Shown here: in pieces, positions 83 to 32,163 of the stretch
How the letters are laid out: every line of letters begins with the position of its first letter
How positions within the stretch are numbered: position 1 is the stretch's first letter
IMG/VR virus record: IMGVR_UViG_3300012286_000260
Span: 1-33,070 of that record
Length of the DNA: 33,070 nt
From: a virus
Lineage: Duplodnaviria > Caudoviricetes
Reading direction: 5' to 3' (one strand)
Translations under genes and position numbers: made by a program
The notes under the pieces: generated by a model
Database searches by the model: none
Told to the model about the DNA's origin: nothing
The model's input: the letters and a program-made list of their open reading frames with translations, nothing else

Positions 83-478
83 ATGAACGGATTAATCAAC
101 CCAGAAACTGGGGAACCAATTGTCAAAAATGTACGTAGACAGGTTATTGAAAAGAAGTATAACTGGGGACTCTACGTCTATAAGAAATCTAACGGTAAGT
201 GGTTTACTGACGGAGAAGGAAATGTTTTAAACATTGAGTCAATGCGTAACGATGTTGCAAAGATTGCAGACCTAAAAGCAGCAGCAAGACACTTCGGTGA
301 TGACGGAGAAGGGGAAGCAGTATTTGTCCCTGGACTTACAAGAATTAGCGATGAAGAGCACTCAGAGCAGATGGATCGTATGAAGTCTGGTCTTATTCCA
401 TCAATGAATGACTTGGGAGCATGGCATGCAGCCCAGCAAACATTGAACAAAGCAGGCAAGGATGCATTTGATGACTAA
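83..478 (+). CDS. hypothetical phage protein upstream of the portal (131 aa)
   Basis: Open ORF with a promoter motif upstream; its stop overlaps the portal start; no recognisable family. Confidence 0.75.
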   Translation: MNGLINPETGEPIVKNVRRQVIEKKYNWGLYVYKKSNGKWFTDGEGNVLNIESMRNDVAKIADLKAAARHFGDDGEGEAVFVPGLTRISDEEHSEQMDRMKSGLIPSMNDLGAWHAAQQTLNKAGKDAFDD

Positions 479-2105
479 TAGCGATTACTTAGAGGCAAGA
501 CTTAGTACAGCTGAAAAGCCTGAGAGTCAATTTAAAAATAGTGACCCATTTAATAAATCTTGGGAAGAGCTAAAATCTCTTGGCGGTATTGAGGAAAACT
601 TTAAGCGTCGTGTAACAAGACAAGTAAATAAAGCAATGACCCAAGAAGGTTATCTTGCTACAAATGGAAACATTAATTTACTTAGTCCACAATATCTTGA
701 TTCTGCAAATGCTGATCCAAAAGGATTAAAGGATTCAGGATCTAAAGCAATCAACCCTGGCCTAGTTTATAGAAATGGCTATGGCCTGTTTGATGTTATT
801 ACTCCCCCATACAACATGTATGAGTTGGCTAATTTTTATGACACTTCTTTTGCTAATCATGCAGCTATTGATGCAAAGGTAGAAAATGTTGTTGGTCTTG
901 GATATCGTTTTGATGTTACAGACAGAACAATGCTGAGCCTTGAAAATAACGCAGACAAGGCAGCAACAGATCGTGCAAGAAAGAGAATTGAAAGAGCAAA
1001 GCTAGAGCTTCGTGATTGGATTGAGTCACTAAACGATGACGATAGCTTTACAAGAACAATGGAAAAGATCTACACTGACCTTCAGGCAACTGGAAATGGT
1101 TACATGGAAGTTGGTAGAACTGTATCTGGAGAAATTGGATACATCGGACATATTCCATCTACAACAGTTCGTGTTCGTCGCATTCGTGATGGTTTTGTTC
1201 AGATCATTGGACCAAAGGTTGTTTACTTCCGTAACTTCGGAGCAACTAACCAGAATCCATTAACAGCAGATCCACGTCCAAATGAAATTATTCATTTTAA
1301 AGATTATTCACCATTAAACACATACTACGGTGTTCCTGATATTGTTGCAGCATTGCCTTCTTTGATTGGTGACCAGCTTGCATCACAATACAACATTGAT
1401 TATTTTGAAAACAAAGCGGTACCAAGATATGTAATTACACTTAAGGGTGCAAAGCTATCAGCAGACGCAGAAGACAAGATGTTTAGATTCTTGCAGACAG
1501 GACTTAAGTCTCAGTCACACAGAACTCTTTACATTCCACTTCCTGGAGACAATGATCACTCTAAGGTTGAGTTTGATATGAAGCCAATTGAAAATGGCAT
1601 TCAGGATGGTTCATTTAAGGAATACCGCAAGCAGAACCGTGATGATATTTTGATTGCTCATCAGGTTCCTATCTCTAAGCTTGGAGGGGCAGACTCTGGA
1701 GCTATTGCAGCAGCACTTGCTCAAGATCGCACTTTTAAGGAGCAGGTATCTCGTCCAGAACAACAGCATCTTGAAAAAGTTATTGGAAAGATCATTAAGG
1801 AAAAGACAGATATTTTGCAGTTTAAGTTTAATGAGCTTACACTTACAGATGAGATTGCTCAGTCACAAATCCTTGAGCGTTATGTAAAGAACCAGATTAT
1901 GCTTCCAAATGAGGCACGTGAAATACTGGATCTTCCACAGGCAGAGCACGGGGATGAGCCACTTGAACTAGGTGCAAGACAGGCTGCAGATGCCAGGGCA
2001 AACGGGAATAGATCTCGTGATGCAGAGAGAACAAACAATCAGTCAGATGGATCTGCAACGGTTTCAGGACGCAATCCGAAGGGTGAAGGTAGAGCATCTC
2101 AATAA
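471..2105 (+). CDS. phage portal protein (Phage_portal/PBSX-like)
   Basis: Motifs DLQATGNGYMEV, NEIIHFKDYSPLNTYYGVP, YFENKAVP, ILIAHQVP and MLPNEAREILDLP; lies before the protease and MCP. ATG 471 (AAGGA 8 nt upstream) is preferred over 462. Confidence 0.93.
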   Translation: MTNSDYLEARLSTAEKPESQFKNSDPFNKSWEELKSLGGIEENFKRRVTRQVNKAMTQEGYLATNGNINLLSPQYLDSANADPKGLKDSGSKAINPGLVYRNGYGLFDVITPPYNMYELANFYDTSFANHAAIDAKVENVVGLGYRFDVTDRTMLSLENNADKAATDRARKRIERAKLELRDWIESLNDDDSFTRTMEKIYTDLQATGNGYMEVGRTVSGEIGYIGHIPSTTVRVRRIRDGFVQIIGPKVVYFRNFGATNQNPLTADPRPNEIIHFKDYSPLNTYYGVPDIVAALPSLIGDQLASQYNIDYFENKAVPRYVITLKGAKLSADAEDKMFRFLQTGLKSQSHRTLYIPLPGDNDHSKVEFDMKPIENGIQDGSFKEYRKQNRDDILIAHQVPISKLGGADSGAIAAALAQDRTFKEQVSRPEQQHLEKVIGKIIKEKTDILQFKFNELTLTDEIAQSQILERYVKNQIMLPNEAREILDLPQAEHGDEPLELGARQAADARANGNRSRDAERTNNQSDGSATVSGRNPKGEGRASQ

Positions 2106-2127: not shown

Positions 2128-2136
2128 TGGTATAAT
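2128..2136 (+). promoter_or_regulatory. extended -10 promoter TGGTATAAT
   Basis: Perfect TGn-TATAAT in the portal-protease gap, 10 nt before ATG 2147, no SD. Confidence 0.7.
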
Positions 2137-2146
2137 GGATTACAAC

Positions 2147-3478
2147 ATGAACATAAATAAGGCTTTTTGGACCACTGATGGCGACAATGTTCGCCTCTCA
2201 ATGCCCTTTGGCAAAGTAGACACAGAGAAGAGAATCGTTTCTGGTTTTGCGTCTCTGGACAATGTTGACAAGCAGTATGACATTGTTACAACAGAAGCAT
2301 CAATGGCAGCATTTGCAAAGTTCCGTGGGAACATCAGAGAAATGCATCAGCCATCAGCAGTAGGAAAAATGCTTAATTTTAAAGAAGAAAAATATTTTGA
2401 TCCAGAGACAAAGAAGTTCTATAAGGGAGTCTATGTCTCTACTTATATTTCTAAGGGTGCACAGGATGCATGGGAAAAAGTTCTTGATGGAACATACACT
2501 GGTTTTTCAATCGGGGGACGAATGAACAAGTGGGATGATGCATACAATGAAGAACTTGATAAAACAATTCGTGTCATCAAAGACTATGATCTGGTAGAAT
2601 TAAGTCTTGTAGATTCACCAGCAAATCAGTTTGCTAGCATTATGTCTGTTGAGAAAGTTGACGGCGTAGATGTTATTAAGGGAGAATTTGCAGATGTAGT
2701 TGTAGAAAATGTTTTCTATGACGAAGAGACAGGAATAGTTCTAACTTCTGATGAAGAAACATATGTTAGCCCAGTAAGTGGTAACGAAATGAAGAACATT
2801 GGTTTTGTAGAAAAGAATGACTCAGATAAAGCAAATATGATAAAATTCTTAGTTGATAGTGCTAAAGGCATTAATACACCTAAGATTACCAAGGAGGTAA
2901 ACCCTATGACAGAAGAAACAACAGCAGTTGTTGACGCTCCAGTTGCAGAAGCAGTTGAAGCTCCAGCAGCCGAAGCAGTAGTTGAATCAGTTGAGGTCGC
3001 TCCAGAGGCGGATGCAAAGGCAGATACCGTAGAGGCAGAAGAAGAAACAACAGAGAAGGCTGCAAAGCCACATGCTGATGAAGAAACTCCTGCAGAAGAC
3101 GCTGGCGAAAAGCCAGGGGATGAAGAAGCGGAAGACAAGAAGCCAATGGAACCAAAGTCAGATGAAGTAATTGCAAGTGCAATTTCTGAAATTAAAGAAT
3201 CTGTAACTAATGCCTTTGGCGATTTAACAGCAACAATTAAGTCACTTAGTGATGAAGTTGCTAACCTAAAGAAGTCTCTTGATGCCACAACAACTGATGT
3301 GAATCAGATCAAGGGTACTTTTAATGAAATTGGAAAGCGAGTTGATTCCGTAGAAAAGGACACAGCTTTCCGCAAGTCTGGCGATCTAGGCGAGATCGTG
3401 CAGGAATTGGACTCAGCTCCAGTTCAAAAATCCCTATGGGGCGGACGTTTCCTCAAATTCTCCGACCTATATAACTAA
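2147..3478 (+). CDS. HK97-family prohead maturation protease fused to an acidic scaffold region
   Basis: VSGFAS..VDKQYDIV, IREMH, GFSIGG and LVELSLVDSPAN (His/Ser/Glu of Peptidase_S78); acidic Ala/Glu linker and C-terminal coiled coil. The ORF-track ATG at 2135 lies inside the -10 box, so 2147 is preferred. Confidence 0.9.
   Translation: MNINKAFWTTDGDNVRLSMPFGKVDTEKRIVSGFASLDNVDKQYDIVTTEASMAAFAKFRGNIREMHQPSAVGKMLNFKEEKYFDPETKKFYKGVYVSTYISKGAQDAWEKVLDGTYTGFSIGGRMNKWDDAYNEELDKTIRVIKDYDLVELSLVDSPANQFASIMSVEKVDGVDVIKGEFADVVVENVFYDEETGIVLTSDEETYVSPVSGNEMKNIGFVEKNDSDKANMIKFLVDSAKGINTPKITKEVNPMTEETTAVVDAPVAEAVEAPAAEAVVESVEVAPEADAKADTVEAEEETTEKAAKPHADEETPAEDAGEKPGDEEAEDKKPMEPKSDEVIASAISEIKESVTNAFGDLTATIKSLSDEVANLKKSLDATTTDVNQIKGTFNEIGKRVDSVEKDTAFRKSGDLGEIVQELDSAPVQKSLWGGRFLKFSDLYN
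2838..2846 (+). promoter_or_regulatory. putative internal extended -10 promoter TGATAAAAT
   Basis: Matches TGnTAnnnT and lies about 60 nt upstream of the internal SD/ATG at 2891/2906. Confidence 0.4.
2906..3478 (+). CDS. nested in-frame scaffolding protein (190 aa, MTEETTAVV...)
   Basis: Perfect SD AAGGAGGT (2891-2898) 7 nt before in-frame ATG 2906, where the acidic/coiled-coil region begins; analogous to lambda C/Nu3. Confidence 0.7.
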   Translation: MTEETTAVVDAPVAEAVEAPAAEAVVESVEVAPEADAKADTVEAEEETTEKAAKPHADEETPAEDAGEKPGDEEAEDKKPMEPKSDEVIASAISEIKESVTNAFGDLTATIKSLSDEVANLKKSLDATTTDVNQIKGTFNEIGKRVDSVEKDTAFRKSGDLGEIVQELDSAPVQKSLWGGRFLKFSDLYN

Positions 3479-3505: not shown

Positions 3506-4618
3506 ATGTCAGAAGATATCGTAAAAAACTATCCAGGTACTAGCGAAGGCCACACTCATACAGGTGAAGGCGCAGTAGCATCTGGTTCTACATCAGACGC
3601 AGCAGCCATTGTTAATGGTCGTGTTGGCGTTATGGGTAACATTGATGGTGCAAATTACGGAACAACAGGTGCTAATGGAGTAAATCCAGTAGGTACACCT
3701 GGCGGTATCCTATTGCCTGAACAAGCTCGTCGCTTCATTGATTATGTGTGGGATGCTACAGTTCTCGCTAAGGATGGACGTAGAGTTACAATGAGAGCTA
3801 ACACAATGGAACTTGAAAAGGTTAACGTTGGTGAGCGTGTAATTCGTGCAGCAGCACAGGCAGACCCTACATTTACAAATGCAGGAGCAACTTTCTCAAA
3901 GGTTGAATTGACTACAAAGAAGATTCGTCTTGACTGGGAAGTTTCAACAGAAGCACTTGAAGACAACGTAGAAGGTGGAGCTCTTGAAGATCACCTTGTT
4001 CGTTTGATGACAACAGCTTTTGCTAACGACATTGAAGATCTTGCGATCAACGGTGACGGATCAACAGGCAACTTCCTTTCAATCATGGAAGGTTTTGTTT
4101 CAAAGGCACAGGGCGGAGACTCACACGAGTCACTCGTAACAGTTGAAAATAACAACTGGACAACACCTGTTCTCCAGGATATCATCCTTGCAATGCCACG
4201 CAAGTACCGTGCAATCAAGAACAATCTTAAGTTCTATGCTGGTACAGACGCATTCCAGGGTATTGTCAAGAACAACGGTACACTTGCTGATGCAATTGCA
4301 GAAGCATTTACACCACGTCTTGGTGGTACTGAGGCTAACCGTCAGGCATACTACGATGGAAACGCTCAGACATTCGGTGGAGCACGTACAACACGTGTCC
4401 TCGGTGTTGAAGTACAGGAAGTTCCTTACTACCCTGCAGGATATGTAGATCTTACATTCCCACAGAACCGTGTATGGGGATTCCAGCGTGATATCACTGT
4501 AAACCGTTTCTACCAGCCAAAGAAGGACACAATTGAGTACACAGTATTCGTCCGCTTTGGTATTCAGTGGGAAGAGCTTGATGCAGTTGCATACGCAACA
4601 GCAGCAGACAACTCATAA
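3506..4618 (+). CDS. major capsid protein (HK97 fold)
   Basis: GGILLPEQARRFID, KVELTTKKIRLDWEVSTEALEDN and FANDIEDLAINGDG; SD AGGAGGTGA (3492-3500) favours ATG 3506; follows the protease/scaffold. Confidence 0.93.
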   Translation: MSEDIVKNYPGTSEGHTHTGEGAVASGSTSDAAAIVNGRVGVMGNIDGANYGTTGANGVNPVGTPGGILLPEQARRFIDYVWDATVLAKDGRRVTMRANTMELEKVNVGERVIRAAAQADPTFTNAGATFSKVELTTKKIRLDWEVSTEALEDNVEGGALEDHLVRLMTTAFANDIEDLAINGDGSTGNFLSIMEGFVSKAQGGDSHESLVTVENNNWTTPVLQDIILAMPRKYRAIKNNLKFYAGTDAFQGIVKNNGTLADAIAEAFTPRLGGTEANRQAYYDGNAQTFGGARTTRVLGVEVQEVPYYPAGYVDLTFPQNRVWGFQRDITVNRFYQPKKDTIEYTVFVRFGIQWEELDAVAYATAADNS

Positions 4619-4630
4619 TCGCAAAACGAT

Positions 4631-4673
4631 TGACTTTGGGGAACGGTGTAAAAGCCGTTCCCTTCAGTCATTT
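4631..4673 (+). terminator. stem-loop after the MCP, probable intrinsic terminator or attenuator
   Basis: GGGGAACGGT-GTAAAA-GCCGTTCCCT extended by TGACT/AGTCA pairing, followed by TTT. Confidence 0.65.
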
Positions 4674-4727
4674 ATAAGGAGAATAAATGTCATATCCAGG
4701 AACACCGCAAGACCACACACACGTTGC

Positions 4728-5699
4728 GGTGCAAATTACGGAACAACAGGTGCTAATGGAGTAAATCCAGTAGGTACACCTGGCGGTATCCTATTGCCTG
4801 AACAAGCTCGTCGCTTCATTGATTATGTGTGGGATGCTACAGTTCTCGCTAAGGATGGACGTAGAGTTACAATGAGAGCTAACACAATGGAACTTGAAAA
4901 GGTTAACGTTGGTGAGCGTGTAATTCGTGCAGCAGCACAGGCAGACCCTACATTTACAAATGCAGGAGCAACTTTCTCAAAGGTTGAATTGACTACAAAG
5001 AAGATTCGTCTTGACTGGGAAGTTTCAACAGAAGCACTTGAAGACAACGTAGAAGGTGGAGCTCTTGAAGATCACCTTGTTCGTTTGATGACAACAGCTT
5101 TTGCTAACGACATTGAAGATCTTGCGATCAACGGTGACGGATCAACAGGCAACTTCCTTTCAATCATGGAAGGTTTTGTTTCAAAGGCACAGGGCGGAGA
5201 CTCACACGAGTCACTCGTAACAGTTGAAAATAACAACTGGACAACACCTGTTCTCCAGGATATCATCCTTGCAATGCCACGCAAGTACCGTGCAATCAAG
5301 AACAATCTTAAGTTCTATGCTGGTACAGACGCATTCCAGGGTATTGTCAAGAACAACGGTACACTTGCTGATGCAATTGCAGAAGCATTTACACCACGTC
5401 TTGGTGGTACTGAGGCTAACCGTCAGGCATACTACGATGGAAACGCTCAGACATTCGGTGGAGCACGTACAACACGTGTCCTCGGTGTTGAAGTACAGGA
5501 AGTTCCTTACTACCCTGCAGGATATGTAGATCTTACATTCCCACAGAACCGTGTATGGGGATTCCAGCGTGATATCACTGTAAACCGTTTCTACCAGCCA
5601 AAGAAGGACACAATTGAGTACACAGTATTCGTCCGCTTTGGTATTCAGTGGGAAGAGCTTGATGCAGTTGCATACGCAACAGCAGCAGACAACTCATAA
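4728..5699 (+). pseudogene. 5'-truncated second MCP copy (lacks the first 47 codons); possibly an assembly artefact
   Basis: Identical translation to the MCP from GANYG onward; no SD/ATG; the upstream ATG at 4687 is out of frame and stops at 4764. Confidence 0.7.
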
Positions 5700-5711
5700 T
5701 CGCAAAACGAT

Positions 5712-5754
5712 TGACTTTGGGGAACGGTGTAAAAGCCGTTCCCTTCAGTCATTT
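5712..5754 (+). terminator. duplicate of the post-MCP stem-loop
   Basis: Same sequence as 4631-4673, offset by 1081. Confidence 0.6.
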
Positions 5755-5767
5755 ATAAGGAGAATAA

Positions 5768-6010
5768 ATGTCATATCCAGGAACACCGCAAGACCACACA
5801 CACGTTGCAGAAGGTGCAATCGTAACATTGGGTAACCCAGGGGTTATAGTAATGGGTCCAGGAGGCTTACAGGCCAATACAATGGGCACTCTAGGGCAAG
5901 CAAACATGGGTGATACATCTGGTCCAAATGCTGTTAACCCCTCTGGAACTCCAAATGGAATTCGTTTACCATCACAAAATAATTTTGGTATAGGAAGAAG
6001 ACGACGCTAA
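5768..6010 (+). CDS. 80-aa paralog of the MCP N-terminal arm with an Arg-rich C-terminus
   Basis: SD AAGGAG; YPGT..HTH..EGA and MG...ANxG..G.N.VNP.GTP.GI.LP.Q are shared with about MCP residues 9-73. Confidence 0.8.
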   Translation: MSYPGTPQDHTHVAEGAIVTLGNPGVIVMGPGGLQANTMGTLGQANMGDTSGPNAVNPSGTPNGIRLPSQNNFGIGRRRR

Positions 6011-6013
6011 TTC

Positions 6014-6022
6014 TGGTATAAT
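6014..6022 (+). promoter_or_regulatory. extended -10 promoter TGGTATAAT
   Basis: Perfect motif in the intergenic gap, followed by SD AGGAGG and ATG 6039. Confidence 0.7.
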
Positions 6023-6038
6023 GACTTAGGAGGAATTA

Positions 6039-6383
6039 ATGTTTACTATTGAAGATTTGTCTAAAAAGACTGTTATGGAAATAAAGTCTTATGCAAAAAG
6101 AAATAACATTGATTTGTTGGGGGCAACAAAAAAGGCTGAAATGCTTGAAGTAATAGCAAATTGGACTCCATCAGAGCCAGAGGTTTTACTAGAAGAAGAA
6201 AAGCCAAAGCAAGAAAAAGTAGCACTATTTTCAGAGCGTAACATATTTTGGAATGGTGTTGGCGAAGTCGTAAAAGGCTATAACATAGTAACCAAGGAGG
6301 TTTCCGAAAAGTGGCTTACCCACAGCAAGGTTCGCATAGCGACACCCCAAGAAGTGGCAAGGTACTACGGTAAAAAAACATGA
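6039..6383 (+). CDS. Rho_N/HeH-domain protein (114 aa)
   Basis: EDLSKKTVMEIKSYAKRNNIDLLGATKKAEMLEVI fits the helix-extension-helix Rho N-terminal pattern; such genes are common after capsid genes. Confidence 0.7.
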   Translation: MFTIEDLSKKTVMEIKSYAKRNNIDLLGATKKAEMLEVIANWTPSEPEVLLEEEKPKQEKVALFSERNIFWNGVGEVVKGYNIVTKEVSEKWLTHSKVRIATPQEVARYYGKKT

Positions 6384-9838: not shown

Positions 9839-10549
9839 ATGGCAACAACAATATACCCTATAAATAAAATGTTTTTATTGGACGATAAGGAATTAGAAAT
9901 TATCCCATTAAAGATAAAATATCTTCGTGAGTTCATGGTGGTATTTGACAAGATAAAAGAAACAAAAAATGATGATGATGCTATAAATATTTTGGTGGAG
10001 TGTGTAAGAATATGCATGAAGCAGTACTATCCAGAAATATCAAAGTCAGTAGAGGATATAGAGGATAATTTTGATTTGCCAAGCATATACCAAGTTCTTG
10101 ACTACGCTGCTGGAATCAAAATTAATAGTCAGTCACAGGAACCAGTAAAATCTCAAGCAATACAAAGTAATACATCCTGGGATGATTTTGATCTAGCCAA
10201 ACTAGAATCAGAGGTATTTTTGCTGGGTATATGGAAAGACTATCAAGAACTAGAATTATCATTGTCTATGCCAGAGATAATAGCAACTCTGGAGTCAGCA
10301 AGAGAGTTAGATTATTCAGAAAAGAAATTTCTAGCTGCTATTCAGGGTGTGGACTTAGATAAAGAAACAGGATCCGATAAGGGTCAAAAGGAATGGGAAG
10401 ACCTAAAGGCAAGAGTATTCAGTAGAGGTGCTACATCTGATTCTGATGACGTTCTTGCTTTACAAGGAGTTAATGCCGAAAAACTAGGGTTTGGTATTGG
10501 CTTAGGTCTTGATTATGAAGATGGCAGAGACCCTAGTCTTATGCTATAA
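9839..10549 (+). CDS. tail assembly chaperone, long form (gpGT-like, 236 aa)
   Basis: Lies between the tail tube and TMP; the first ~95 aa are homologous to the next gene, followed by a ~140-aa extension. Confidence 0.75.
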   Translation: MATTIYPINKMFLLDDKELEIIPLKIKYLREFMVVFDKIKETKNDDDAINILVECVRICMKQYYPEISKSVEDIEDNFDLPSIYQVLDYAAGIKINSQSQEPVKSQAIQSNTSWDDFDLAKLESEVFLLGIWKDYQELELSLSMPEIIATLESARELDYSEKKFLAAIQGVDLDKETGSDKGQKEWEDLKARVFSRGATSDSDDVLALQGVNAEKLGFGIGLGLDYEDGRDPSLML

Positions 10550-10576: not shown

Positions 10577-10909
10577 ATGGCAACAACAGTACATGAGGGT
10601 AAAGAACTTATTCTTATGGATGGAACAAAGATTAAGGTAAGACCTCTTAAGATTTCTTTGTTGCGTCCATTTATGTCTAAGTTTGAAAAAGTGGCAGAGG
10701 TGGCAGAAGATAACGAAAAGTCAATGGCTCTTCTTATGGAATGCGTACGAATTGCTATGGAGCAGTACAGCCCAGAACTAGCTAAGGATTCTGATAAGCT
10801 GGAAGATATTCTTGATCTTCCAACAGTTTATGAGATCATTGAAGCAGCATCTGGAGTAAAGTTAACAGACGCAAACGCTCTTCTTAACACAGTGCTTGCA
10901 AATAACTAA
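10577..10909 (+). CDS. tail assembly chaperone, short form (gpG-like, 110 aa)
   Basis: Directly before the TMP; LMDGTKIKVRPLKISLL beta-hairpin then helices; strong SD. Confidence 0.8.
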   Translation: MATTVHEGKELILMDGTKIKVRPLKISLLRPFMSKFEKVAEVAEDNEKSMALLMECVRIAMEQYSPELAKDSDKLEDILDLPTVYEIIEAASGVKLTDANALLNTVLANN

Positions 10910-10948: not shown

Positions 10949-13900
10949 GTGGCTGACGTAAATGCTAATATAGGCGTAAATATAAATACGGCTTCTGCAC
11001 TTGCGGGTCTAAAAAACTTACAGCGACAACTAGCAACCTTTCACTCTTCTGTAGCACAAGGTAGTGCACAAACAGCAGCAGCCCAAAGAGGCTTGCAGAC
11101 AAATCTTTTAAATTCAATTAATGCAACAGGAATGTTCACGGCCAAGATGGGCCTTGTCAGAACATCCACAGAATCTTTTACACACGCACTTGAAAATAAC
11201 AAACTCACCATGCGTGAGTATTTCCGTTTTGCTGGGGCATCTACAAAGACATTCGGAAGAATGTTTAAGTCTGAGTTTGACACAATTGGCAAGGTAGCTC
11301 AAGATCGTGTCAAGAAGATGCAAACCCAGTACATCAAGATGGGCCGTGATGCATCTGGTGCAATGAAGGCAATGGCTATTACGCCAAATACCTTAAACAT
11401 GAAAGACTACGCAACACAGACTGCTGTTGCAGCACAGAAGCAAGCACTCTTTAATCAGCTTGTAAGACAGGGCTCTACAAACCTTCTTAACTTTGGTAAG
11501 AATACACAGTGGGCTGGTCGTCAGCTCATGGTTGGTTTCTCTATTCCTCTTGCATATTTTGGAACAGCTGCAGCTAAAACATTTATGAAGCTAGAAGAAC
11601 AGGCGATTAGATTTAAGCGTGTTTATGGCGAAATGTTTACTACATCTGAAGAAACAGATAAGGCATTAAAGGACATAGAAGGTCTAGCAAAAAGCTTTAT
11701 TCAGTACGGAGTTAAAGTAGAAGACACCATGAAGATGGCAGCTGATGCTGCTGCTATGGGTAAGATGGGTGCAGAGCTTACAGCACAAGTTGCACAGGCA
11801 ACAAAATTGGCGGTACTTGGTAGCGTAGAACAAGACAAAGCATTAGAGACAACAATCTCACTTACAAATGCTTTTGGTATTTCTGCTGATCAGCTTGCTC
11901 AAAAGATTAACTTTCTTAACGCAGTTGAAAACCAAACTGTAGTAAATATTGAAGACCTTACAACAGCTATTCCTAAAGCTGGACCAGTTGTTAAGCAGCT
12001 TGGTGGATCTGTAGAAGATCTTGCTTTCTTCCTTACAGCAATGAAGGAAGGTGGCATTAATGCATCAGAAGGTGCCAACGCACTCAAGTCTGGTTTGGCA
12101 TCTCTTATTAATCCAAGCAAGAAAGCATCTGAAATGCTATCTGGACTTGGAATTAATATTAACGCTATTGTTGAAGGAAACAAGGGAGATCTAAAGGGCA
12201 CTGTTATAGGATTTGCACAGGCACTTGATACTCTTGCACCACTTGAAAGATCAAGAGCAATTGAGCAGCTATTTGGTAAGTTCCAGTTTGCACGTCTTTC
12301 AACATTGTTCCAGAACATCACAAAAGATGGTACACAGGCAAACCGTGTTCTTGGTTTGACAAATGCAAGCGTTGAAGAACTTGCAATCTTATCTGAGCGA
12401 GAAATGAACAAGGTAAAGGATGCTGTTGGAACTAACTTCAAAGCATCTATGGAAAACCTAAAGGTTTCTATTGCTCCAATTGGAAAAACATTCCTTGAGG
12501 CAGTAACTCCAATTGTTAAGTTTTTGGGTAAGTTGTTTGAAAAGTTTAATGGATTAGATGATGGCGTAAAGAAGTTTATTGTAACAGCAGGAGCACTTGT
12601 AGGAATTATTGGTCCTGTTCTTCTTATGACATTTGGTTTGGTTGCTAACGGCGTTGCTAATATAATTAAACTGTTCTTGGCTATGCGTGTTGGTTTCATG
12701 AAAATTGGTGGCAGTAGCAAGATTCTGGCAGAACAAACAACATATTTAAATGCAGCACAGCTTGAATCAGCTACAGTTGCAGCATCTCTTAACCAGGCAC
12801 ACACACAGCTAACACAAAGATTTGAATTTGAAGCAGCAGCAGTAAGAGCATTGAGAAATGCCTATGTAGAGGCAACAGTTGCAGCAGCTAAGTTTGCTAG
12901 ATCAAATCCTGGAGCAATGATGGGACCAGGTGCTCGTCCAGCTGGCCCAAGAAGATATGCTGGAGGAACTACAAACGTACCTGGCCCAAGAGGAGCTGGA
13001 GATATTGTTCCAACACTTTTGAGTCCAGGTGAGGCTGTCATTCCAGCGGGAGTTGCACAAAGTCCAGACTTCAAGCCAATCATTGCTGGAATGGTTAATG
13101 GTTCAATTGCAATGAACGATGTAGGAACAACAGGAGCAGGAAATCCTGCAAACAATGGAAATGGAACAAGGGGAGTAACTCTTAAGAGCCTAGGCATTGC
13201 AGAGAATGCTCCTTCAGTTCCAAGAGTAATTCCAACACAAGAATCACCATTAACACTTTCTGCACAAGCAACTAGAAAGCAAAAAGCTCTTCAAAGATAT
13301 TTTGATATCAAGTACGGTCCAAACTCTGGTGCAAGCCCTGAAGCAAAAGCTGCGTATGCGTCTAATAAGAATGGCTTTAGAGACTTAACAAAGAGACTTG
13401 TCTTTGATCCTACCACTAAAAAGTATACATACATCAATGCAAAGGGCATAGCTGGAGCTCAAATTACAGCACGGGAAATTGAACAAAGAATTAAGTATAC
13501 TTTTAAAGAAGCTCAAAGTGGACTAGGAAAGTATTCAACAAAGTCTATAACTCCATCAACTCTGAATAGACACCTTGAACGAATTAAGCAACAAGGAACA
13601 GGTGCTCCTTCTGCGGTAAAGAGCTTGCGCCAAAAGATGAACCTTAAAGATTCTGCAATTGCAGCAAGAGAGGGAGAAAAGCTTCACAAGGAGCTAACAA
13701 AGGCGGGACTTAGCAAGGCAGAGATTCAAAACTTTATGTCAAATAAAGAAGAGTCTCATATCCTTAAGCCAAAAGACTCTGCAACAAAGTGGCAATCAGG
13801 GCACACCATATCTGATCATAGAGGATTAAATAACTACCTAAATCGTGCAGGTGGTTCTACTATGGGTAAGCTAATCAACAATCCAAAGCTTATTCTTCCT

Positions 13901-16900
13901 AAGTCACAAGGTGGACTAGGCCTAAGCCAGAAGGATGTTCTTCAGCTAAAGAACGACTATAAGTTTGCACAGCTAGAAAAGCACCCTACAACTCCGCAAG
14001 AGCTTAGTAAGTTTGCAAGACTAGCAGCTCTGGAAGTTGCAGCACACGAATCTGGAATAGCAAAGGTAGACAAGATCTACCAGTCAAAGGGCGTTCTCGC
14101 TTTGGCAAAGGTAAGAACTCCAGAGTACTACAAGGATATTGCAAAAAGAATTATTAAGCTTGGACCAACACCAAAGGCTTTATCTGAGGTTGTTGCTGTT
14201 TCTAAGGGTGAAAAGCAAAGTGCTCCAGGAAAGAAGCCAGTAACTCTAACAGGACAGAACACACAGCCAAAGCCTGCGGGAATGCAAACAACAAGCAGAA
14301 ACGTAGCAGACAATAGAATTACTACCCTTGATAAGGGCGGATCAATTATTCCAAAGGGAGTAAGAATTAGAGGAGGTATTGATGGAATTAATACAGTACC
14401 TCCAGGAATGGCTGTATCAGCTATTGACAGACAGTTCAATGCAGAGCAAAACTCTTTGCGTCGTCAAATTGAGCTTCAAGAAAAAAGAAGACTTGCAGCA
14501 CTTAGATTAGAAGCAAAACTTAAGGAACAAGAAAAGGCAAGACTTAAGGCAGAAGCAAATGCTAGAGCAAAGCAGGCACAGCTTGATGCAACAAATGCAG
14601 CAAAGGCTAGAGCAGGACTTGCAAAGTTTAGTGAAAGAGCAACACAGGGACTCGGAGCACTATCTGGGTTAACTATAGCAGCATCATTTGCTGGTGGTGA
14701 AATTGGCTCAATGGCACAAAAGATTATGCCATTCATATTTGGTTTGCAAGGCGTAGCAATGCTTCTTCCTGCTCTTGTCAAGTGGCAGGGACTTGTTGGA
14801 CTTACTGTAGCAGCTTTTGTGGCTGCACAAATGTGGATTAATAACTCTGCTAAAAATGCAAGAAATCAAATGCTAGACTTAGCAGAAGCAACAGGATCAG
14901 CATCTGAAAATATCAAGAAAATGTCTGAGTTTGCGGGTACAGTAAGTGCTGCAGAACTACTAGCATATAAGCAAGCTAACTCAAGAAGCCCACTTACTGT
15001 TGCACAAGGCAAGAGTTCTTTTGGAGAGATGTATGCAAAGTCTGATCAGGGTAAAGCTACTGCTGCAGGACTAAGAAAAATAATTGGTTCACAAGGCATG
15101 CAAGAAGGAGCTCAAGTATTAAAAGAGCAACTCTCTGCAGCCGTCGCTTCTGGAGTGTTTACAACAGCACAAGCTAGAAGCGTTGCACTTAGTATCGGAA
15201 GAGAAGTTGGAAATATTCAACTTGGACTTCGTGTTAACGCAGAGCTTGCAAATGTTTTTGGTCCAGATGGAAAAAATATTTTGGGTACAAATGGAATCAA
15301 TCTTAGAGTAAACTTAGTACAAGAGCAGATGGATAAAGCAAATAGTTTAGCTAAGCAGACCAATGGCGATGGAAGAGGGTTAGGAAGAATTCCTATTGGA
15401 AGCAATAGAGTTCTTGGCGGTGGAATGGATAAGGGTCTATTTACGGCAGCATCTATAATTGGTGCAGGATCTACTGGTGTTCAACTTGGTGCAGCATCAG
15501 GTGCTGCTGTTGGTTCATTGTTTGCAGGAGTTGGAGCAGCACCAGGAGCAGCAATTGGTTCAGTAGTTGGTGGAATAATTGCTTCTGCGGTAAAGAGCTT
15601 GCGCCAAAAGATGAACCTTAAAGATTCTGCAATTGCAGCAAGAGAGGGAGAAAAGCTTCACAAGGAGCTAACAAAGGCGGGACTTAGCAAGGCAGAGATT
15701 CAAAACTTTATGTCAAATAAAGAAGAGTCTCATATCCTTAAGCCAAAAGACTCTGCAACAAAGTGGCAATCAGGGCACACCATATCTGATCATAGAGGAT
15801 TAAATAACTACCTAAATCGTGCAGGTGGTTCTACTATGGGTAAGCTAATCAACAATCCAAAGCTTATTCTTCCTAAGTCACAAGGTGGACTAGGCCTAAG
15901 CCAGAAGGATGTTCTTCAGCTAAAGAACGACTATAAGTTTGCACAGCTAGAAAAGCACCCTACAACTCCGCAAGAGCTTAGTAAGTTTGCAAGACTAGCA
16001 GCTCTGGAAGTTGCAGCACACGAATCTGGAATAGCAAAGGTAGACAAGATCTACCAGTCAAAGGGCGTTCTCGCTTTGGCAAAGGTAAGAACTCCAGAGT
16101 ACTACAAGGATATTGCAAAAAGAATTATTAAGCTTGGACCAACACCAAAGGCTTTATCTGAGGTTGTTGCTGTTTCTAAGGGTGAAAAGCAAAGTGCTCC
16201 AGGAAAGAAGCCAGTAACTCTAACAGGACAGAACACACAGCCAAAGCCTGCGGGAATGCAAACAACAAGCAGAAACGTAGCAGACAATAGAATTACTACC
16301 CTTGATAAGGGCGGATCAATTATTCCAAAGGGAGTAAGAATTAGAGGAGGTATTGATGGAATTAATACAGTACCTCCAGGAATGGCTGTATCAGCTATTG
16401 ACAGACAGTTCAATGCAGAGCAAAACTCTTTGCGTCGTCAAATTGAGCTTCAAGAAAAAAGAAGACTTGCAGCACTTAGATTAGAAGCAAAACTTAAGGA
16501 ACAAGAAAAGGCAAGACTTAAGGCAGAAGCAAATGCTAGAGCAAAGCAGGCACAGCTTGATGCAACAAATGCAGCAAAGGCTAGAGCAGGACTTGCAAAG
16601 TTTAGTGAAAGAGCAACACAGGGACTCGGAGCACTATCTGGGTTAACTATAGCAGCATCATTTGCTGGTGGTGAAATTGGCTCAATGGCACAAAAGATTA
16701 TGCCATTCATATTTGGTTTGCAAGGCGTAGCAATGCTTCTTCCTGCTCTTGTCAAGTGGCAGGGACTTGTTGGACTTACTGTAGCAGCTTTTGTGGCTGC
16801 ACAAATGTGGATTAATAACTCTGCTAAAAATGCAAGAAATCAAATGCTAGACTTAGCAGAAGCAACAGGATCAGCATCTGAAAATATCAAGAAAATGTCT

Positions 16901-19822
16901 GAGTTTGCGGGTACAGTAAGTGCTGCAGAACTACTAGCATATAAGCAAGCTAACTCAAGAAGCCCACTTACTGTTGCACAAGGCAAGAGTTCTTTTGGAG
17001 AGATGTATGCAAAGTCTGATCAGGGTAAAGCTACTGCTGCAGGACTAAGAAAAATAATTGGTTCACAAGGCATGCAAGAAGGAGCTCAAGTATTAAAAGA
17101 GCAACTCTCTGCAGCCGTCGCTTCTGGAGTGTTTACAACAGCACAAGCTAGAAGCGTTGCACTTAGTATCGGAAGAGAAGTTGGAAATATTCAACTTGGA
17201 CTTCGTGTTAACGCAGAGCTTGCAAATGTTTTTGGTCCAGATGGAAAAAATATTTTGGGTACAAATGGAATCAATCTTAGAGTAAACTTAGTACAAGAGC
17301 AGATGGATAAAGCAAATAGTTTAGCTAAGCAGACCAATGGCGATGGAAGAGGGTTAGGAAGAATTCCTATTGGAAGCAATAGAGTTCTTGGCGGTGGAAT
17401 GGATAAGGGTCTATTTACGGCAGCATCTATAATTGGTGCAGGATCTACTGGTGTTCAACTTGGTGCAGCATCAGGTGCTGCTGTTGGTTCATTGTTTGCA
17501 GGAGTTGGAGCAGCACCAGGAGCAGCAATTGGTTCAGTAGTTGGTGGAATAATTGGAATTAGCACTGGAGCATTCATGGCTGCAAAGTACATGGGGCAAG
17601 CTGCAGCTCGTGTTGCAGGATTTGCTGCACAGACAACAACAGCCTATAAGACTGCGAATGATTTAAGCAATCAAATGCAAGCTGCTTTGCAATTGTCATA
17701 CGCAGATGCAATAAAGAAAGCAAAAGCTGATAAGGATATTTTGAAGGTAAGAAGACTTGAGCTAGAGCTTGCAAAAAAGAGTAAAAGACTACAGGAACAA
17801 GGACAAAAAACAAGACAAGACGCTGTTGACTTTTATGCAAACTCAAAGGGATTAACTAGAAGAGAAACAAGAAAAGCACTTGAAGAAACAACAAAGCGTA
17901 AGTATAAAGACGATGCTCAGCAGTCTATGTACGTAAATGATGCAACAAGTGTTGCAAAGAACATGAGTGGAACCCTTGAAGGTAAGATTCAAATGATGAT
18001 GGGCAATGGCTCAATGACTCCTGCACAGGTTGTTGCTCTTGATAACATGATTGCAGATGGACCACAGAAGACAAAAACTTTTAATATTGTTGCACAGATT
18101 GATACTAAGTTTGGTGGAGTTGCAGCAGGATCAGGTGTTGATGTAGCTGGTGGGTTTACTAACCTTATAGGAGAAACAAATACAAATGCAGTAAATACAT
18201 TCTTTGTTGATATTAGAAAAGCTAAGTCACAGAAGGAAGTTGATGACCTGCTAAACCTTTATGGAACATTGTCAATGGGTAATGGATATCTAGATGTTGG
18301 AATGCTTGTAGAGTATTACCAAAAGAATCCAAAAGCAGCAGAAGAACTTAATAGTCAGCTTGATGCACTTAAGGAAAACGGTGGAAAGATTGACATTGCA
18401 GTTCTTCAAACATTCTTGCCACCAAAGGTTATGGGTGCAATTAATCAGGACTACTTCAAAAACCTTGATCAAAATTCTCGTCAGGTTTATACAACTGTTA
18501 TTGCTCAAATTCTTGATGTTAAGGATCCAAAGGTAATTACAGAAAGCGGTGACTTTGACACATGGATGAATGACACTAGTGAGTTTGGTGGAGCAAAGTA
18601 TAAGGGACAAAAGCATGCAAGAGTCACATGGGCACAAATGTATGCAGCAGCAAAGGCTGAAAAGGTCACAACTGAAAACCCTGCTCTAACCCCAGTTGAT
18701 TACAATGGCGGTAAGCAGTCTGGTGCTGGAGAAAGAGATACGACATTTGATGAAACATTAACTGCTCTTAAGCGTACTAGAGATTCAAGAATTAATGAAA
18801 CAGGTGGAAAGAATGAACTTCTTCGCATCCTTGGTGGAAAGAAAGACATTAAGATATTTGAAGGACTTGATCAGCAGCTATCTAAGCTTGGTGCTAACAC
18901 AGCATTTATTGACTGGGTTGGTGGATTAGAGAAGAGTGTAAGAAACAAGTTAATCACAGTAGCAAAAGATGGAACAGTTGCTCTTAAGGCATTAGGTGAG
19001 GCAGCAAAGAAAGCATTTAACGAAAAGGCATTAGGAGCCTGGAGCGTGAGTTCTGTTCTTGCTACTCAGGCAGCTAAGGCACAAAGAACAGCCTTTGTAA
19101 AGTTAAAGAACTCAGGAGTTGAAACTTCAGAGGCAATGAATTTAGTTGCAGACGCTGACCTTGCAGTTGCAATTGCCAGCGTAAAAACTTCAGGGGAAGT
19201 TCAAAAAACTGTAGATCAGTGGAAAGAATCAAAGCGTCAAGCAGAGATAACTCTTGCCATGACAGATCCAAAACAGTACTTTAGTGATATCAATGATGAG
19301 TTAAAGAGACAGTATGACTATCAGCAAAAGATAATGGCATTACAGAGAAGTGCTACAGAGTCTAAGATTTCTGGAGACTATATTGGTGCATCTATGCTTG
19401 GTCAGCAAAAGATTCAAGAAGTTTCACAGTTTAATCAAGAATCAAAGCCAATTGATTTTGCTAACAAGTTAGCTGTAATGAAGGAAGCTCTTAATATTGC
19501 TAAGAACTCTAAGCTAAAGGATAAGGGGCAGATAGCATTAATTCAGTCAACTCTTAGCCAAGGCTCTCTTGGTATAGATCAGCTAAGATCATTTAGCCCA
19601 GACCTAACAAAGGCAGCTGCTCTTCAAACAGGAAATCCAGCAATTGCAAATACATTTAGTAATCAGGTATCAGCAACTACACCAACCTCTGGAACAGTGT
19701 ATAATGTTACTATGACAGTTAATGGGGCCAAGGCAGATGCTTCAGATATCGCTAATCAGGTTATCAAGAAGCTTGGTGTTAAAACAACACAAAATAACAA
19801 ATCAAATGCGGTGACCCCATAA
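10949..19822 (+). CDS. tail tape measure protein, TP901/PhageMin_Tail type (2957 aa as given; 2299 aa without the internal duplication)
   Basis: GTG start with SD GGAGG; core motif AVENQTVVNIEDLTTAIPKAGPVVKQLGGSVEDL...MKEGGINASEGANALKSGLASLINP; Ala/Gly-rich helices, hydrophobic segments and a Gly zipper; C-terminal YNVTMTVNG. Confidence 0.93.
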   Translation: MADVNANIGVNINTASALAGLKNLQRQLATFHSSVAQGSAQTAAAQRGLQTNLLNSINATGMFTAKMGLVRTSTESFTHALENNKLTMREYFRFAGASTKTFGRMFKSEFDTIGKVAQDRVKKMQTQYIKMGRDASGAMKAMAITPNTLNMKDYATQTAVAAQKQALFNQLVRQGSTNLLNFGKNTQWAGRQLMVGFSIPLAYFGTAAAKTFMKLEEQAIRFKRVYGEMFTTSEETDKALKDIEGLAKSFIQYGVKVEDTMKMAADAAAMGKMGAELTAQVAQATKLAVLGSVEQDKALETTISLTNAFGISADQLAQKINFLNAVENQTVVNIEDLTTAIPKAGPVVKQLGGSVEDLAFFLTAMKEGGINASEGANALKSGLASLINPSKKASEMLSGLGININAIVEGNKGDLKGTVIGFAQALDTLAPLERSRAIEQLFGKFQFARLSTLFQNITKDGTQANRVLGLTNASVEELAILSEREMNKVKDAVGTNFKASMENLKVSIAPIGKTFLEAVTPIVKFLGKLFEKFNGLDDGVKKFIVTAGALVGIIGPVLLMTFGLVANGVANIIKLFLAMRVGFMKIGGSSKILAEQTTYLNAAQLESATVAASLNQAHTQLTQRFEFEAAAVRALRNAYVEATVAAAKFARSNPGAMMGPGARPAGPRRYAGGTTNVPGPRGAGDIVPTLLSPGEAVIPAGVAQSPDFKPIIAGMVNGSIAMNDVGTTGAGNPANNGNGTRGVTLKSLGIAENAPSVPRVIPTQESPLTLSAQATRKQKALQRYFDIKYGPNSGASPEAKAAYASNKNGFRDLTKRLVFDPTTKKYTYINAKGIAGAQITAREIEQRIKYTFKEAQSGLGKYSTKSITPSTLNRHLERIKQQGTGAPSAVKSLRQKMNLKDSAIAAREGEKLHKELTKAGLSKAEIQNFMSNKEESHILKPKDSATKWQSGHTISDHRGLNNYLNRAGGSTMGKLINNPKLILPKSQGGLGLSQKDVLQLKNDYKFAQLEKHPTTPQELSKFARLAALEVAAHESGIAKVDKIYQSKGVLALAKVRTPEYYKDIAKRIIKLGPTPKALSEVVAVSKGEKQSAPGKKPVTLTGQNTQPKPAGMQTTSRNVADNRITTLDKGGSIIPKGVRIRGGIDGINTVPPGMAVSAIDRQFNAEQNSLRRQIELQEKRRLAALRLEAKLKEQEKARLKAEANARAKQAQLDATNAAKARAGLAKFSERATQGLGALSGLTIAASFAGGEIGSMAQKIMPFIFGLQGVAMLLPALVKWQGLVGLTVAAFVAAQMWINNSAKNARNQMLDLAEATGSASENIKKMSEFAGTVSAAELLAYKQANSRSPLTVAQGKSSFGEMYAKSDQGKATAAGLRKIIGSQGMQEGAQVLKEQLSAAVASGVFTTAQARSVALSIGREVGNIQLGLRVNAELANVFGPDGKNILGTNGINLRVNLVQEQMDKANSLAKQTNGDGRGLGRIPIGSNRVLGGGMDKGLFTAASIIGAGSTGVQLGAASGAAVGSLFAGVGAAPGAAIGSVVGGIIASAVKSLRQKMNLKDSAIAAREGEKLHKELTKAGLSKAEIQNFMSNKEESHILKPKDSATKWQSGHTISDHRGLNNYLNRAGGSTMGKLINNPKLILPKSQGGLGLSQKDVLQLKNDYKFAQLEKHPTTPQELSKFARLAALEVAAHESGIAKVDKIYQSKGVLALAKVRTPEYYKDIAKRIIKLGPTPKALSEVVAVSKGEKQSAPGKKPVTLTGQNTQPKPAGMQTTSRNVADNRITTLDKGGSIIPKGVRIRGGIDGINTVPPGMAVSAIDRQFNAEQNSLRRQIELQEKRRLAALRLEAKLKEQEKARLKAEANARAKQAQLDATNAAKARAGLAKFSERATQGLGALSGLTIAASFAGGEIGSMAQKIMPFIFGLQGVAMLLPALVKWQGLVGLTVAAFVAAQMWINNSAKNARNQMLDLAEATGSASENIKKMSEFAGTVSAAELLAYKQANSRSPLTVAQGKSSFGEMYAKSDQGKATAAGLRKIIGSQGMQEGAQVLKEQLSAAVASGVFTTAQARSVALSIGREVGNIQLGLRVNAELANVFGPDGKNILGTNGINLRVNLVQEQMDKANSLAKQTNGDGRGLGRIPIGSNRVLGGGMDKGLFTAASIIGAGSTGVQLGAASGAAVGSLFAGVGAAPGAAIGSVVGGIIGISTGAFMAAKYMGQAAARVAGFAAQTTTAYKTANDLSNQMQAALQLSYADAIKKAKADKDILKVRRLELELAKKSKRLQEQGQKTRQDAVDFYANSKGLTRRETRKALEETTKRKYKDDAQQSMYVNDATSVAKNMSGTLEGKIQMMMGNGSMTPAQVVALDNMIADGPQKTKTFNIVAQIDTKFGGVAAGSGVDVAGGFTNLIGETNTNAVNTFFVDIRKAKSQKEVDDLLNLYGTLSMGNGYLDVGMLVEYYQKNPKAAEELNSQLDALKENGGKIDIAVLQTFLPPKVMGAINQDYFKNLDQNSRQVYTTVIAQILDVKDPKVITESGDFDTWMNDTSEFGGAKYKGQKHARVTWAQMYAAAKAEKVTTENPALTPVDYNGGKQSGAGERDTTFDETLTALKRTRDSRINETGGKNELLRILGGKKDIKIFEGLDQQLSKLGANTAFIDWVGGLEKSVRNKLITVAKDGTVALKALGEAAKKAFNEKALGAWSVSSVLATQAAKAQRTAFVKLKNSGVETSEAMNLVADADLAVAIASVKTSGEVQKTVDQWKESKRQAEITLAMTDPKQYFSDINDELKRQYDYQQKIMALQRSATESKISGDYIGASMLGQQKIQEVSQFNQESKPIDFANKLAVMKEALNIAKNSKLKDKGQIALIQSTLSQGSLGIDQLRSFSPDLTKAAALQTGNPAIANTFSNQVSATTPTSGTVYNVTMTVNGAKADASDIANQVIKKLGVKTTQNNKSNAVTP
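13608..17555. repeat. 1974-bp in-frame direct tandem duplication inside the TMP (13608-15581 and 15582-17555)
   Basis: 658 codons repeated; sense and antisense translations are identical between copies; junction GGAATAATTG|CTTCTGCGG. Confidence 0.95.
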
Positions 19823-30537: not shown

Positions 30538-31551
30538 ATGAATGTATCCTGCAGCTCTTTATCTCAGTCACAATTTTTAGACTATGACTTTGATTATGTT
30601 TCCGTTAAAAATTTAAGCGTTGATAACGGTCACAAAGATACCATAACTTTTTCTGGAAAGACCTATCTGTTTGCCACATATTCCCATTATGGACACACAG
30701 TTATGGATATTTTTGCTCAGCTAAAAATACTTCAAATAGTACACCCTGACATAAAGCCTGTTTTTTATGAGCAAAGCTCTAAGGGTTTTATGTTTAATAA
30801 TTCTAAAGTTGTATCAGATATGATAAACATATTAGGAGAAAATTCTGAAAATATAATAGATATATCAAAAAATAATTATGTCTTTGAAGAGGTCATATTA
30901 TTTTTTGATATGTGCAATCTTTTTAGTGACGAGTTTTATTCAAAGCATGGAGCGACTAGAACACTAAACTATTTTCCTTTTTGCAAATGTTACATGGGAT
31001 CTGAGCCTTGCGGTACAAGTAAACACTTCAAATATAACTATCTTGCTATAGATACGCTAAGAAAATTTTTATCTCCCTATTTTTCTCAAACTTATGAAGA
31101 AAATGTTTATATATCTAGAGAGCATTACAATGCTAAATGGCTTAATGACATACTCCATTATGCCAACAAGGACAGTCTCTCTGAGGAAGAGAAGCATTTG
31201 CTTTGGGTCTCACAAATACGATACTACAAAGACGAACCGTTAATCCAATCATTCTTTAAATCCAGAGGGTATAAGATAATAAAACCAGAAGAGCATGGAT
31301 TTATTGATCAAATTAAGATATTTAGTAATGCTAAAAGAATAGTCAGCTTATCTGGAACAGGACTATTTAATGCTATGTGGTCAAACTCTACAGCAAATAT
31401 TTTTGAACTAATATCTATACCAGAGTACAAGTATCATTATGAGCAGTTCATAAAGCATGCTGGAGCTAATTATAATAAGGTAGATGTTTACGGTATGTCT
31501 GACTATGATATACTTAAAGTATTAATAAACAATGTAGAGGGGGCATCATGA
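30538..31551 (+). CDS. glycosyltransferase family 61 (DUF563) protein
   Basis: HYGHTVMD, VYISR, GYKIIKPEEHGFIDQIKIFSNAKRIVSLSGTGLFNAMW and IFEL match the GT61 signature. Confidence 0.85.
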   Translation: MNVSCSSLSQSQFLDYDFDYVSVKNLSVDNGHKDTITFSGKTYLFATYSHYGHTVMDIFAQLKILQIVHPDIKPVFYEQSSKGFMFNNSKVVSDMINILGENSENIIDISKNNYVFEEVILFFDMCNLFSDEFYSKHGATRTLNYFPFCKCYMGSEPCGTSKHFKYNYLAIDTLRKFLSPYFSQTYEENVYISREHYNAKWLNDILHYANKDSLSEEEKHLLWVSQIRYYKDEPLIQSFFKSRGYKIIKPEEHGFIDQIKIFSNAKRIVSLSGTGLFNAMWSNSTANIFELISIPEYKYHYEQFIKHAGANYNKVDVYGMSDYDILKVLINNVEGAS

Positions 31552-32123: not shown

Positions 32124-32163
32124 TAAGGTTATAAAAACATTTAATTAAAATTAGGGGTGTAAA

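Follow-up and report, generated by a model that had tools for sequence, protein, structure and literature searches.

The open reading frame (ORF) at 5768..6010 (+ strand) of the viral record IMGVR_UViG_3300012286_000260 encodes an 80-aa, free-standing paralog of the N-terminal arm that the major capsid protein (MCP) carries. It is a real and conserved gene without a name, which is often lost and is dispensable, and its N-terminal segment changes in step with the arm of its own genome. By analogy with other capsids we propose, at somewhat less than even odds, that its product is a low-copy virion protein which would pair with unpartnered MCP arms, probably at the portal vertex.

A free-standing paralog of the capsid N-terminal arm

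The window, that is, the whole stretch of DNA that was analysed (33,070 bases, about 30% complete), covers a head-tail module with the gene order portal, S78 prohead protease that includes a likely scaffold part, MCP, and connector and tail genes. The MCP (3506..4618, + strand, 370 aa) has the HK97 fold by both profile and structure match: it scores above the cut-off of PF05065, and the top Foldseek matches of its model are T5-like DT57C, P2/P4 and HK97 (E 1e-13 to 1e-10), while no close relative with a solved structure was found for it. Among annotated MCPs, the closest come from Streptomyces phages (43% over residues 66-360); the two of these phages that were examined belong to the Stanwilliamsviridae. 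Sequencing runs with similar DNA are mostly labelled as freshwater, and the labels of metagenome-assembled genomes (MAGs) holding relatives are mixed, these relatives being probably mis-binned. Elsewhere in the window, one ORF (9839-10549) upstream of a tape-measure-like gene joins phrog_10504 and phrog_10474 in frame and is followed by a second phrog_10504 copy (10577-10909) with its own TGnTATAAT motif at 10542; together they look like a tail-chaperone G/GT pair made via duplication, not frameshift. At 27975-29855 and 30538-32727, a gene for a fibronectin-III protein with long Pro/Val/Thr repeats is followed by genes for glycosyltransferase 61, a cupin and a 2OG-Fe(II) oxygenase, which together possibly specify a modified virion surface protein.

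BLASTP aligned ORF residues 3-70 with MCP residues 9-73 at 33 of 70 identical positions (47%, E 8e-14), and the local score of 141 compares with a maximum of 67 in 2000 shuffles. The parent segment is the Gly/Pro-rich arm of the MCP (residues 8-73; 3527..3724, + strand). In profile-profile comparison, the ORF profile matched 29 long-arm MCPs with a probability of 99.4%, as against 1.9% for a 78-row MCP alignment in which short-arm proteins are the majority. The similarity stops at MCP Q73, at the onset of the confident part of the MCP model (residues 1-68 have pLDDT <50), and because that model is an HK97 fold with residues 1-68 unresolved, the homology covers the arm only, in agreement with the first-pass annotation, which had described a paralog of the capsid N-arm stopping where the HK97 core begins. 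Its statement that the two have diverged at the DNA level was likewise correct, since similarity between the genes is confined to one gapped stretch of about 60 nt. The ORF keeps the motif G-x-x-L-P-x-Q, and because this is the counterpart of the GG-x-L-x-P/A-EQ motif that is also present in short-arm MCPs, the direction of descent runs from MCP to ORF. The ORF family thus shows arm-limited homology, one origin and derivation from the MCP, as expected of an N-arm paralog; it is not a vertex paralog of the T4 gp24 type, as its homology ends at MCP residue 73 without a complete HK97 core.

No Pfam or PHROGs family matched the ORF, no PDB sequence was retrieved at E <= 10, and the ESM Atlas gave no usable match. 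The AlphaFold2 model of the protein (pLDDT 52, pTM 0.16) was too poor for a fold search and places, at low confidence, weak strands at residues 26-30 and 33-35. Prediction of a complex of two MCP copies (residues 8-370) with the ORF scored 0.00, which is no answer and carries no weight either way.

Three parts of the protein can be told apart. All 56 family members begin with MSY, and this start is followed by the N-terminal segment (residues 3-19; 5774..5824, + strand), in which the change in step with the arm is seen. A hydrophobic middle element (residues 25-33; 5840..5866, + strand), with invariant G25, I27 and G33, is specific to the ORF and absent from the arm. A basic C-terminal tail (residues 71-80; 5978..6007, + strand) stands in place of the HK97 core, and at least three K/R with no D/E occur in the last 10 residues in 54 of the 56 members. 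The tail is unlikely to be a by-product of a DNA element, since tails differ between clades and the Arg codons vary. The first-pass annotation was right that the frame is open, ends in NNFGIGRRRR and has a Shine-Dalgarno sequence (AAGGAG, 5757..5762, + strand; SD-like motif in 55/55 relatives). In contrast, the HTH..E pattern that it took to be conserved and possibly metal-binding is not family-wide: the ligand set H-x-H-x-x-E is found in 25/56 members and H-x-H in 47/56, while 9 have neither. That reading also overlooked the dispensability of the ORF and its own invariant middle element.

The region contains an exact 1081-bp tandem duplication (3647..5808; 3647-4727 = 4728-5808), which lies outside the system. 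The claim that the ORF is separate from this duplication stands in that the ORF is independent of the repeat, but 41 nt at the start of the ORF fall within its second copy, and a truncated start is also present at 4687-4727. The same contig has a second exact tandem repeat of 1974 bp (13608-17555) and a 55-nt end repeat (27706-27760 and 33016-33070), whereas a single copy is seen in each of the 380 fetched loci whose MCP core match is near-full; judging from the sequences, the three repeats are probably assembly artefacts. A 372-aa entry of the protein collection (P0134), which comes from a contig of 33,070 bases and is 100% identical over 87% of the MCP, is probably a chimeric second copy.

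Conservation of the ORF and its change in step with the arm

Members of the ORF family fall into 87 protein clusters, with lengths of 47-92 aa. When 1.84 billion representatives were searched with a profile, 13 matches were obtained, and the 10 that were fetched were four family members, five MCP N-termini or fragments, and one unrelated repeat protein. An MCP core was present in 153 records, and the 134 usable ones among them yielded 98 distinct MCP/ORF types, 56 of them with the ORF, which in every one of the 56 lies 64-78 nt behind the MCP stop. Among 30 close relatives the median dN/dS of the ORF was 0.173 (434 of 435 pairs, none >= 1, the pairs not being independent), compared with 0.248 for the arm and 0.146 for the MCP core, and the ORF ratio was 0.27 in a second clade and 0.48 in a set of mixed and diverged members. 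The check that the first-pass annotation had suggested, a search of relatives combined with dN/dS, therefore found the ORF in relatives at a ratio well below 1.

Among the best 80 loci, 75 had enough downstream DNA, and of these MCP-found loci 33 carry the ORF and 42 lack it. Even MCPs that are 99.5% alike (L039 and L038) differ in its presence, and a quick MCP-core tree requires nine changes of presence, three of which are forced by well-supported branches. The ORF was not found in 80 loci fetched with a Streptomyces MCP, in 8 MAG loci, or in annotated phages (2 chance-level matches). The lengths of the portal, protease, adaptor and next-gene products showed no clear difference between loci with and without it. 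All 66 ORF-bearing MCP types have K-N-Y ends and none of the 58 types with other ends carries the ORF, these counts coming from related lineages; a further 54 K-N-Y types are without it.

The relation between arms and ORFs was followed in a tree built from 36 arms and 24 ORFs, picked by hand to give a diverse sample of the 98 types. In it, one branch separates the ORFs from the arms, with support of 100/97, or 100/99 when the N segment (18 alignment columns) is left out. The trees fit a single old duplication and, together with the dN/dS values, uphold the earlier description of an old, maintained duplicate. After a single old duplication, an ORF would be expected to resemble the arms of other genomes as much as its own, but own pairs are closer. 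The N-segment score of own arm against own ORF was 60.0, compared with 46.5 +/- 1.3 for random pairing, the partial Mantel value given core distance was 0.65, and pair contrasts (n=1540) were positive in 1244 cases, negative in 133 and zero in 163. The HxH motif is present in both arm and ORF in 47/56 types and in neither in 9/56, which have the alternative xLN, so that all 56 are concordant, as are 10/10 further ORF-bearing MCP types read from a listing; such counts overstate the independent events, of which there were about 2-5, because the genomes are related. In the tree without the N segment, the motif switches between HxH and xLN two times among the arms and two times among the ORFs; the lineages match, but node support is weak. 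The signal is strongest at ORF residues 3-19 (14 of 15 group contrasts positive, one zero), becomes weaker in the middle of the ORF, and is absent from the means of the two C-terminal shared segments.

Recent gene conversion as the source of this pattern was rejected, as synonymous sites are without sign of recent DNA copying. Synonymous identity is 0.44 between own arm and ORF and 0.46 across genomes, with 0.42 expected from codon usage. At the youngest split the own arm-ORF value is 0.39-0.49, while arm-arm and ORF-ORF values across the split are 0.58 and 0.61. Five of six matched serines, several of them from close relatives, differ in codon family, and the longest exact arm-ORF match has a median of 9 nt in own and cross pairs alike. 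On these sequence data, short-tract conversion older than synonymous saturation may nevertheless be the source of the tracking.

The correspondence is not complete. An HGH-type arm is combined with an HTH-type ORF in one mismatched type, an apparent recombinant (L095); separately, an HTH-type N segment sits on an otherwise HGH-type ORF body in another apparent recombinant (L007). The N segments of arm and ORF are of unequal length in 9/56 types. The first-pass annotation had called the protein an N-arm mimic, and the in-step N segment and the register with the predicted mature end (see below) speak for this indirectly; but the ORF is no pure mimic, because GPNAVNP, a part of the arm motif, has been lost in one ORF clade, and every ORF has the middle element foreign to the arm.

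Expression context and the form of the arm that is copied

As described previously for this DNA, the ORF lies behind a hairpin that follows the MCP stop (5712..5751, + strand, z -4.6), likely an attenuator or a stabiliser of the mRNA 3' end. The hairpin is predicted in relatives both with and without the ORF, and neither its energy (p 0.79) nor its U count (p 0.90) differs by ORF presence, so that the idea of a leakier hairpin in ORF-bearing genomes was rejected. A consensus promoter and terminator scan showed no excess and did not call the hairpin as a terminator. An extended -10-like motif for the next gene, TGnTATAAT (6014..6022, + strand), occurs 3-8 nt after the ORF stop in 55/55 cases and never ahead of the ORF, and in ORF-less types it lies 54-78 nt after the MCP stop, behind the hairpin region (42/42). 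The ORF is thus a clean cassette between hairpin and motif. The same motif stands just ahead of four structural-module genes in the window (2128, 6014, 10542, 24525) and is likely a phage promoter, with no clear -35. In the product of the gene after the ORF (6039-6383), a helix-extended-helix-like N-terminal part, which matches phrog_3281, precedes a small C-terminal domain; relatives (L142, L143, L020) have lost the first part or carry the gene as tandem duplicates.

If TGnTATAAT is the promoter of the next gene, the ORF would be readable only from transcripts that pass the hairpin. Its codon bias is weaker than that of the MCP gene (preferred codons 0.435 vs 0.621 expected), which fits lower expression. 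A sub-stoichiometric product, as the first-pass annotation supposed, is plausible given this bias and the location of the gene after the hairpin and before the next promoter-like motif. Production of an MCP-ORF fusion by stop-codon read-through was ruled out, as the 64-78 nt spacing falls in all three frames. In contigs of the RNA runs, of which four out of six were covered, relatives of the MCP are present; cover over the ORF was seen in one run only and stems at least partly from the MCP arms of relatives.

The MCP begins with a short leader, M1-K7 (3506..3526, + strand), whose hydrophobic-x-Lys end is a predicted maturation cut. K7 is invariant in 29 aligned long-arm MCPs, and a hydrophobic-x-K motif occurs within the first 16 residues in 98/98 long-arm MCPs and in 75/78 of a second, mostly short-arm set. 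The motif followed by S or A is also conserved at four sites (K9, K380, K414, K432) of the S78-family prohead protease fused to a likely scaffold (2135..3478, + strand) and at one site of the portal protein (FNK/S at K32; 462..2105, + strand), although many other lysines there are conserved too. In HK97, according to the accessible part of the source, the MCP is cut at K103/S104 (PMC10275583). The distance from this lysine to the PEQ motif is about 16 residues in short-arm relatives, which is usual for an N-arm, and 61-75 in the long-arm group; for comparison, the SPP1 N-arm spans Ala2-Ala28 in the portion of the report available (PMC6813328). One MCP of the short-arm group (L227:1899-2942) has a longer arm, apparently lengthened independently, with a Gly/Thr-rich extension placed between its Lys and PEQ motifs.

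Long arms contain no lysine in 6722 residues (98/98 arms), against 4.2% in the core; one arm of a later set (L259) has a lysine, and the absence is maybe partly compositional, because Arg is also rare in arms (0.67%). No helix is predicted for the parent segment in the low-confidence model. The ORF starts in register with the predicted cut (M/SYPG against K/NYPG), and methionine aminopeptidase removes Met before Ser. From these sequence features we infer that the prohead protease takes off 7-14 residues and that the long arm stays. The register with the predicted K7 cut and the lack of any further lysine in 98/98 arms make it likely that the ORF copies the mature arm, which would be retained, and not a cleaved leader. 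The parent segment itself does not look like a cleaved delta-domain or scaffold-like leader, as it follows the conserved Lys and holds none in 98/98 arms. The HK97 delta domain and other cleaved MCP leaders resemble it in being N-terminal MCP extensions in systems with an S78 protease and a cut after Lys, in the available parts of PMC10275583 and PMC12749128; in those excerpts the delta domain is helical and lies ahead of the cut, whereas the arm here is Gly/Pro-rich, lysine-free and placed after a conserved Lys. The predicted K7 cut suggests that in this widespread group of freshwater phages the long Gly-rich arm stays in place as a built-in reinforcement and is not a scaffold.

A possible role at the portal vertex and its relation to known systems

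Capsid biology has long asked how a 12-fold portal is sealed into a 5-fold hole whose pentamer is missing, and a free arm copy would be a simple answer to it. In the proposed sequence of events, the prohead protease would cut the MCP after K7, leaving N-Y-P-G as the mature end, and the free protein, on losing Met1, would begin with S-Y-P-G and so match the mature arm without the protease. On expansion, the arms of neighbouring capsomers would pair across 2-fold axes, as in SPP1, where adjacent capsomers have their N-arms antiparallel to each other at both exact and pseudo 2-fold axes in the part of the report at hand (PMC6813328); this type of pairing need not hold for the longer arm here. By geometry, the absence of five pentamer subunits at the portal vertex would leave five hexamer arms partnerless, and about five free copies per virion would complete those pairs whose partner belonged to the absent pentamer. 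The basic tail of the free copy would then sit where the body of the missing subunit would begin, holding DNA or the portal/adaptor. Under like-with-like pairing, the tip of the free arm must follow that of the tethered arm. The free arm would be made by read-through past the post-MCP hairpin and serve as a reinforcement and not as an essential part. Against the proposal, the ORF is absent from 42/75 loci and nearly identical MCPs differ in having it, so that vacant arm sites are evidently tolerated; the imperfect match of arm and ORF, the ORF's invariant middle element and the loss of part of the arm motif in one clade also speak against it. The proposal makes a clear prediction, about five copies beside the portal that are motif-matched to their own MCP, and the natural HxH and xLN variants are ready specificity controls. 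The broader idea, that free copies of the mature arm which co-evolve with it and serve unpartnered arms at the portal vertex form an unrecognised "orphan-arm complementing" class, maybe arisen several times in unrelated HK97-fold phages, is more tentative still.

If the free arm were a cement that co-assembles with MCP arms at many symmetry-related sites (e.g. pentamer-hexamer or 3-fold joints), possibly via His-metal contacts in HxH clades, the change in step and the mature-end register would follow just as well, the strong SD in 55/55 would be natural, and small unstructured proteins do fold on capsids, as the available portions of the reports on Patience gp4 (PMC11965321) and Milano LP2 (PMC10491603) describe. 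Each lattice site, however, already has a tethered arm, a low copy number is suggested by the weak codon bias and by the location after the hairpin, and HxH is absent in 9/56, so that we regard a lattice-wide cement as unlikely. We give a similarly low likelihood to a competitor or decoy outside the virion, binding the MCP, scaffold or protease while the head assembles to time expansion or set head size, or soaking up a sensor of host defence that detects the arm. Such a decoy or modulator would fit the patchy presence of the ORF and its tracking of the arm tip, and in 80alpha there is competition for the N-arm helix between the scaffold and SaPI CpmB, according to the accessible text of PMC12749128; yet without the K7 leader the protein would be a poor protease substrate or decoy, a decoy would have no need of the invariant middle element or of the basic tail, and the dN/dS is without sign of an arms race.

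The ORF-specific invariant residues and the basic tail would also be at home in a duplicate that has taken on its own role, such as nucleic-acid binding inside the head, with the in-step N-terminus as a trace of old, short gene conversions, which could leave a tracking tract near the 5' end. This we consider improbable, as own synonymous identity at the youngest split lies under the arm-arm and ORF-ORF values, the serine codon families differ, and exact matches are no longer in own than in cross pairs. A decaying remnant or assembly artefact might be suspected in a contig with exact tandem duplications and for a gene that is often absent, but it is refuted by the 87 clusters, the dN/dS of 0.17 and the conserved start, SD and position, and its likelihood is negligible. 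The preferred reading, a low-copy partner of vacant arms at the portal vertex, has parallels in several known systems.

T4 gp24 is an MCP paralog with a vertex-specific job, which has the whole HK97 fold, forms pentamers and is essential. It shares with the ORF its descent from an MCP, but it is a whole and essential protein, in contrast to the arm-only duplicate and optional gene found here. The closest annotated MCPs, those of the Streptomyces phages (Stanwilliamsviridae), come with a similar gene order and the same hydrophobic-x-K start motif, but have a short arm and no free copy; their post-MCP gene encodes 131-133 aa and resembles the gene at 6039-6383. In full-text searches of a collection made up largely of openly available papers, some of them covered through passages, no description of a free MCP-arm paralog was found.

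The role proposed here is most nearly matched by gp57 of crAss001, an auxiliary protein at the portal vertex, which in the available part of its report (PMC10172136) is a small substitute for a lattice component, specific to the altered site at the portal vertex. It differs in replacing the auxiliary protein gp36 as a disulfide-linked dimer and is not described in that part as an MCP paralog (PMC10172136); for the ORF product, a place at this vertex is a proposal. In Milano, the 38-residue free protein LP2 (gp128) resembles the N-terminal strand of the capsid protein LP1 and occupies equivalent sites, but it copies the arm of a decoration protein and not of the MCP, is disulfide-linked and is present in many copies, as far as the accessible text goes (PMC10491603). 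The SPP1 gp13 N-arm is a retained N-arm of an HK97-fold protein that forms an antiparallel pair with the next capsomer's arm and thus serves as a model for the parent segment, although it has about 27 residues and no free copy is mentioned in the portion consulted (PMC6813328). Like the ORF product, gp4 of Patience and Adjutor is a small accessory protein, in this case of actinophages, a random coil alone that becomes ordered on the capsid; in the excerpt it fills split hexamers and is not described as MCP-derived (PMC11965321). Judged from its sequence, the ORF family is a variant of the MCP-derived accessory proteins, with a specific proposed mechanism.
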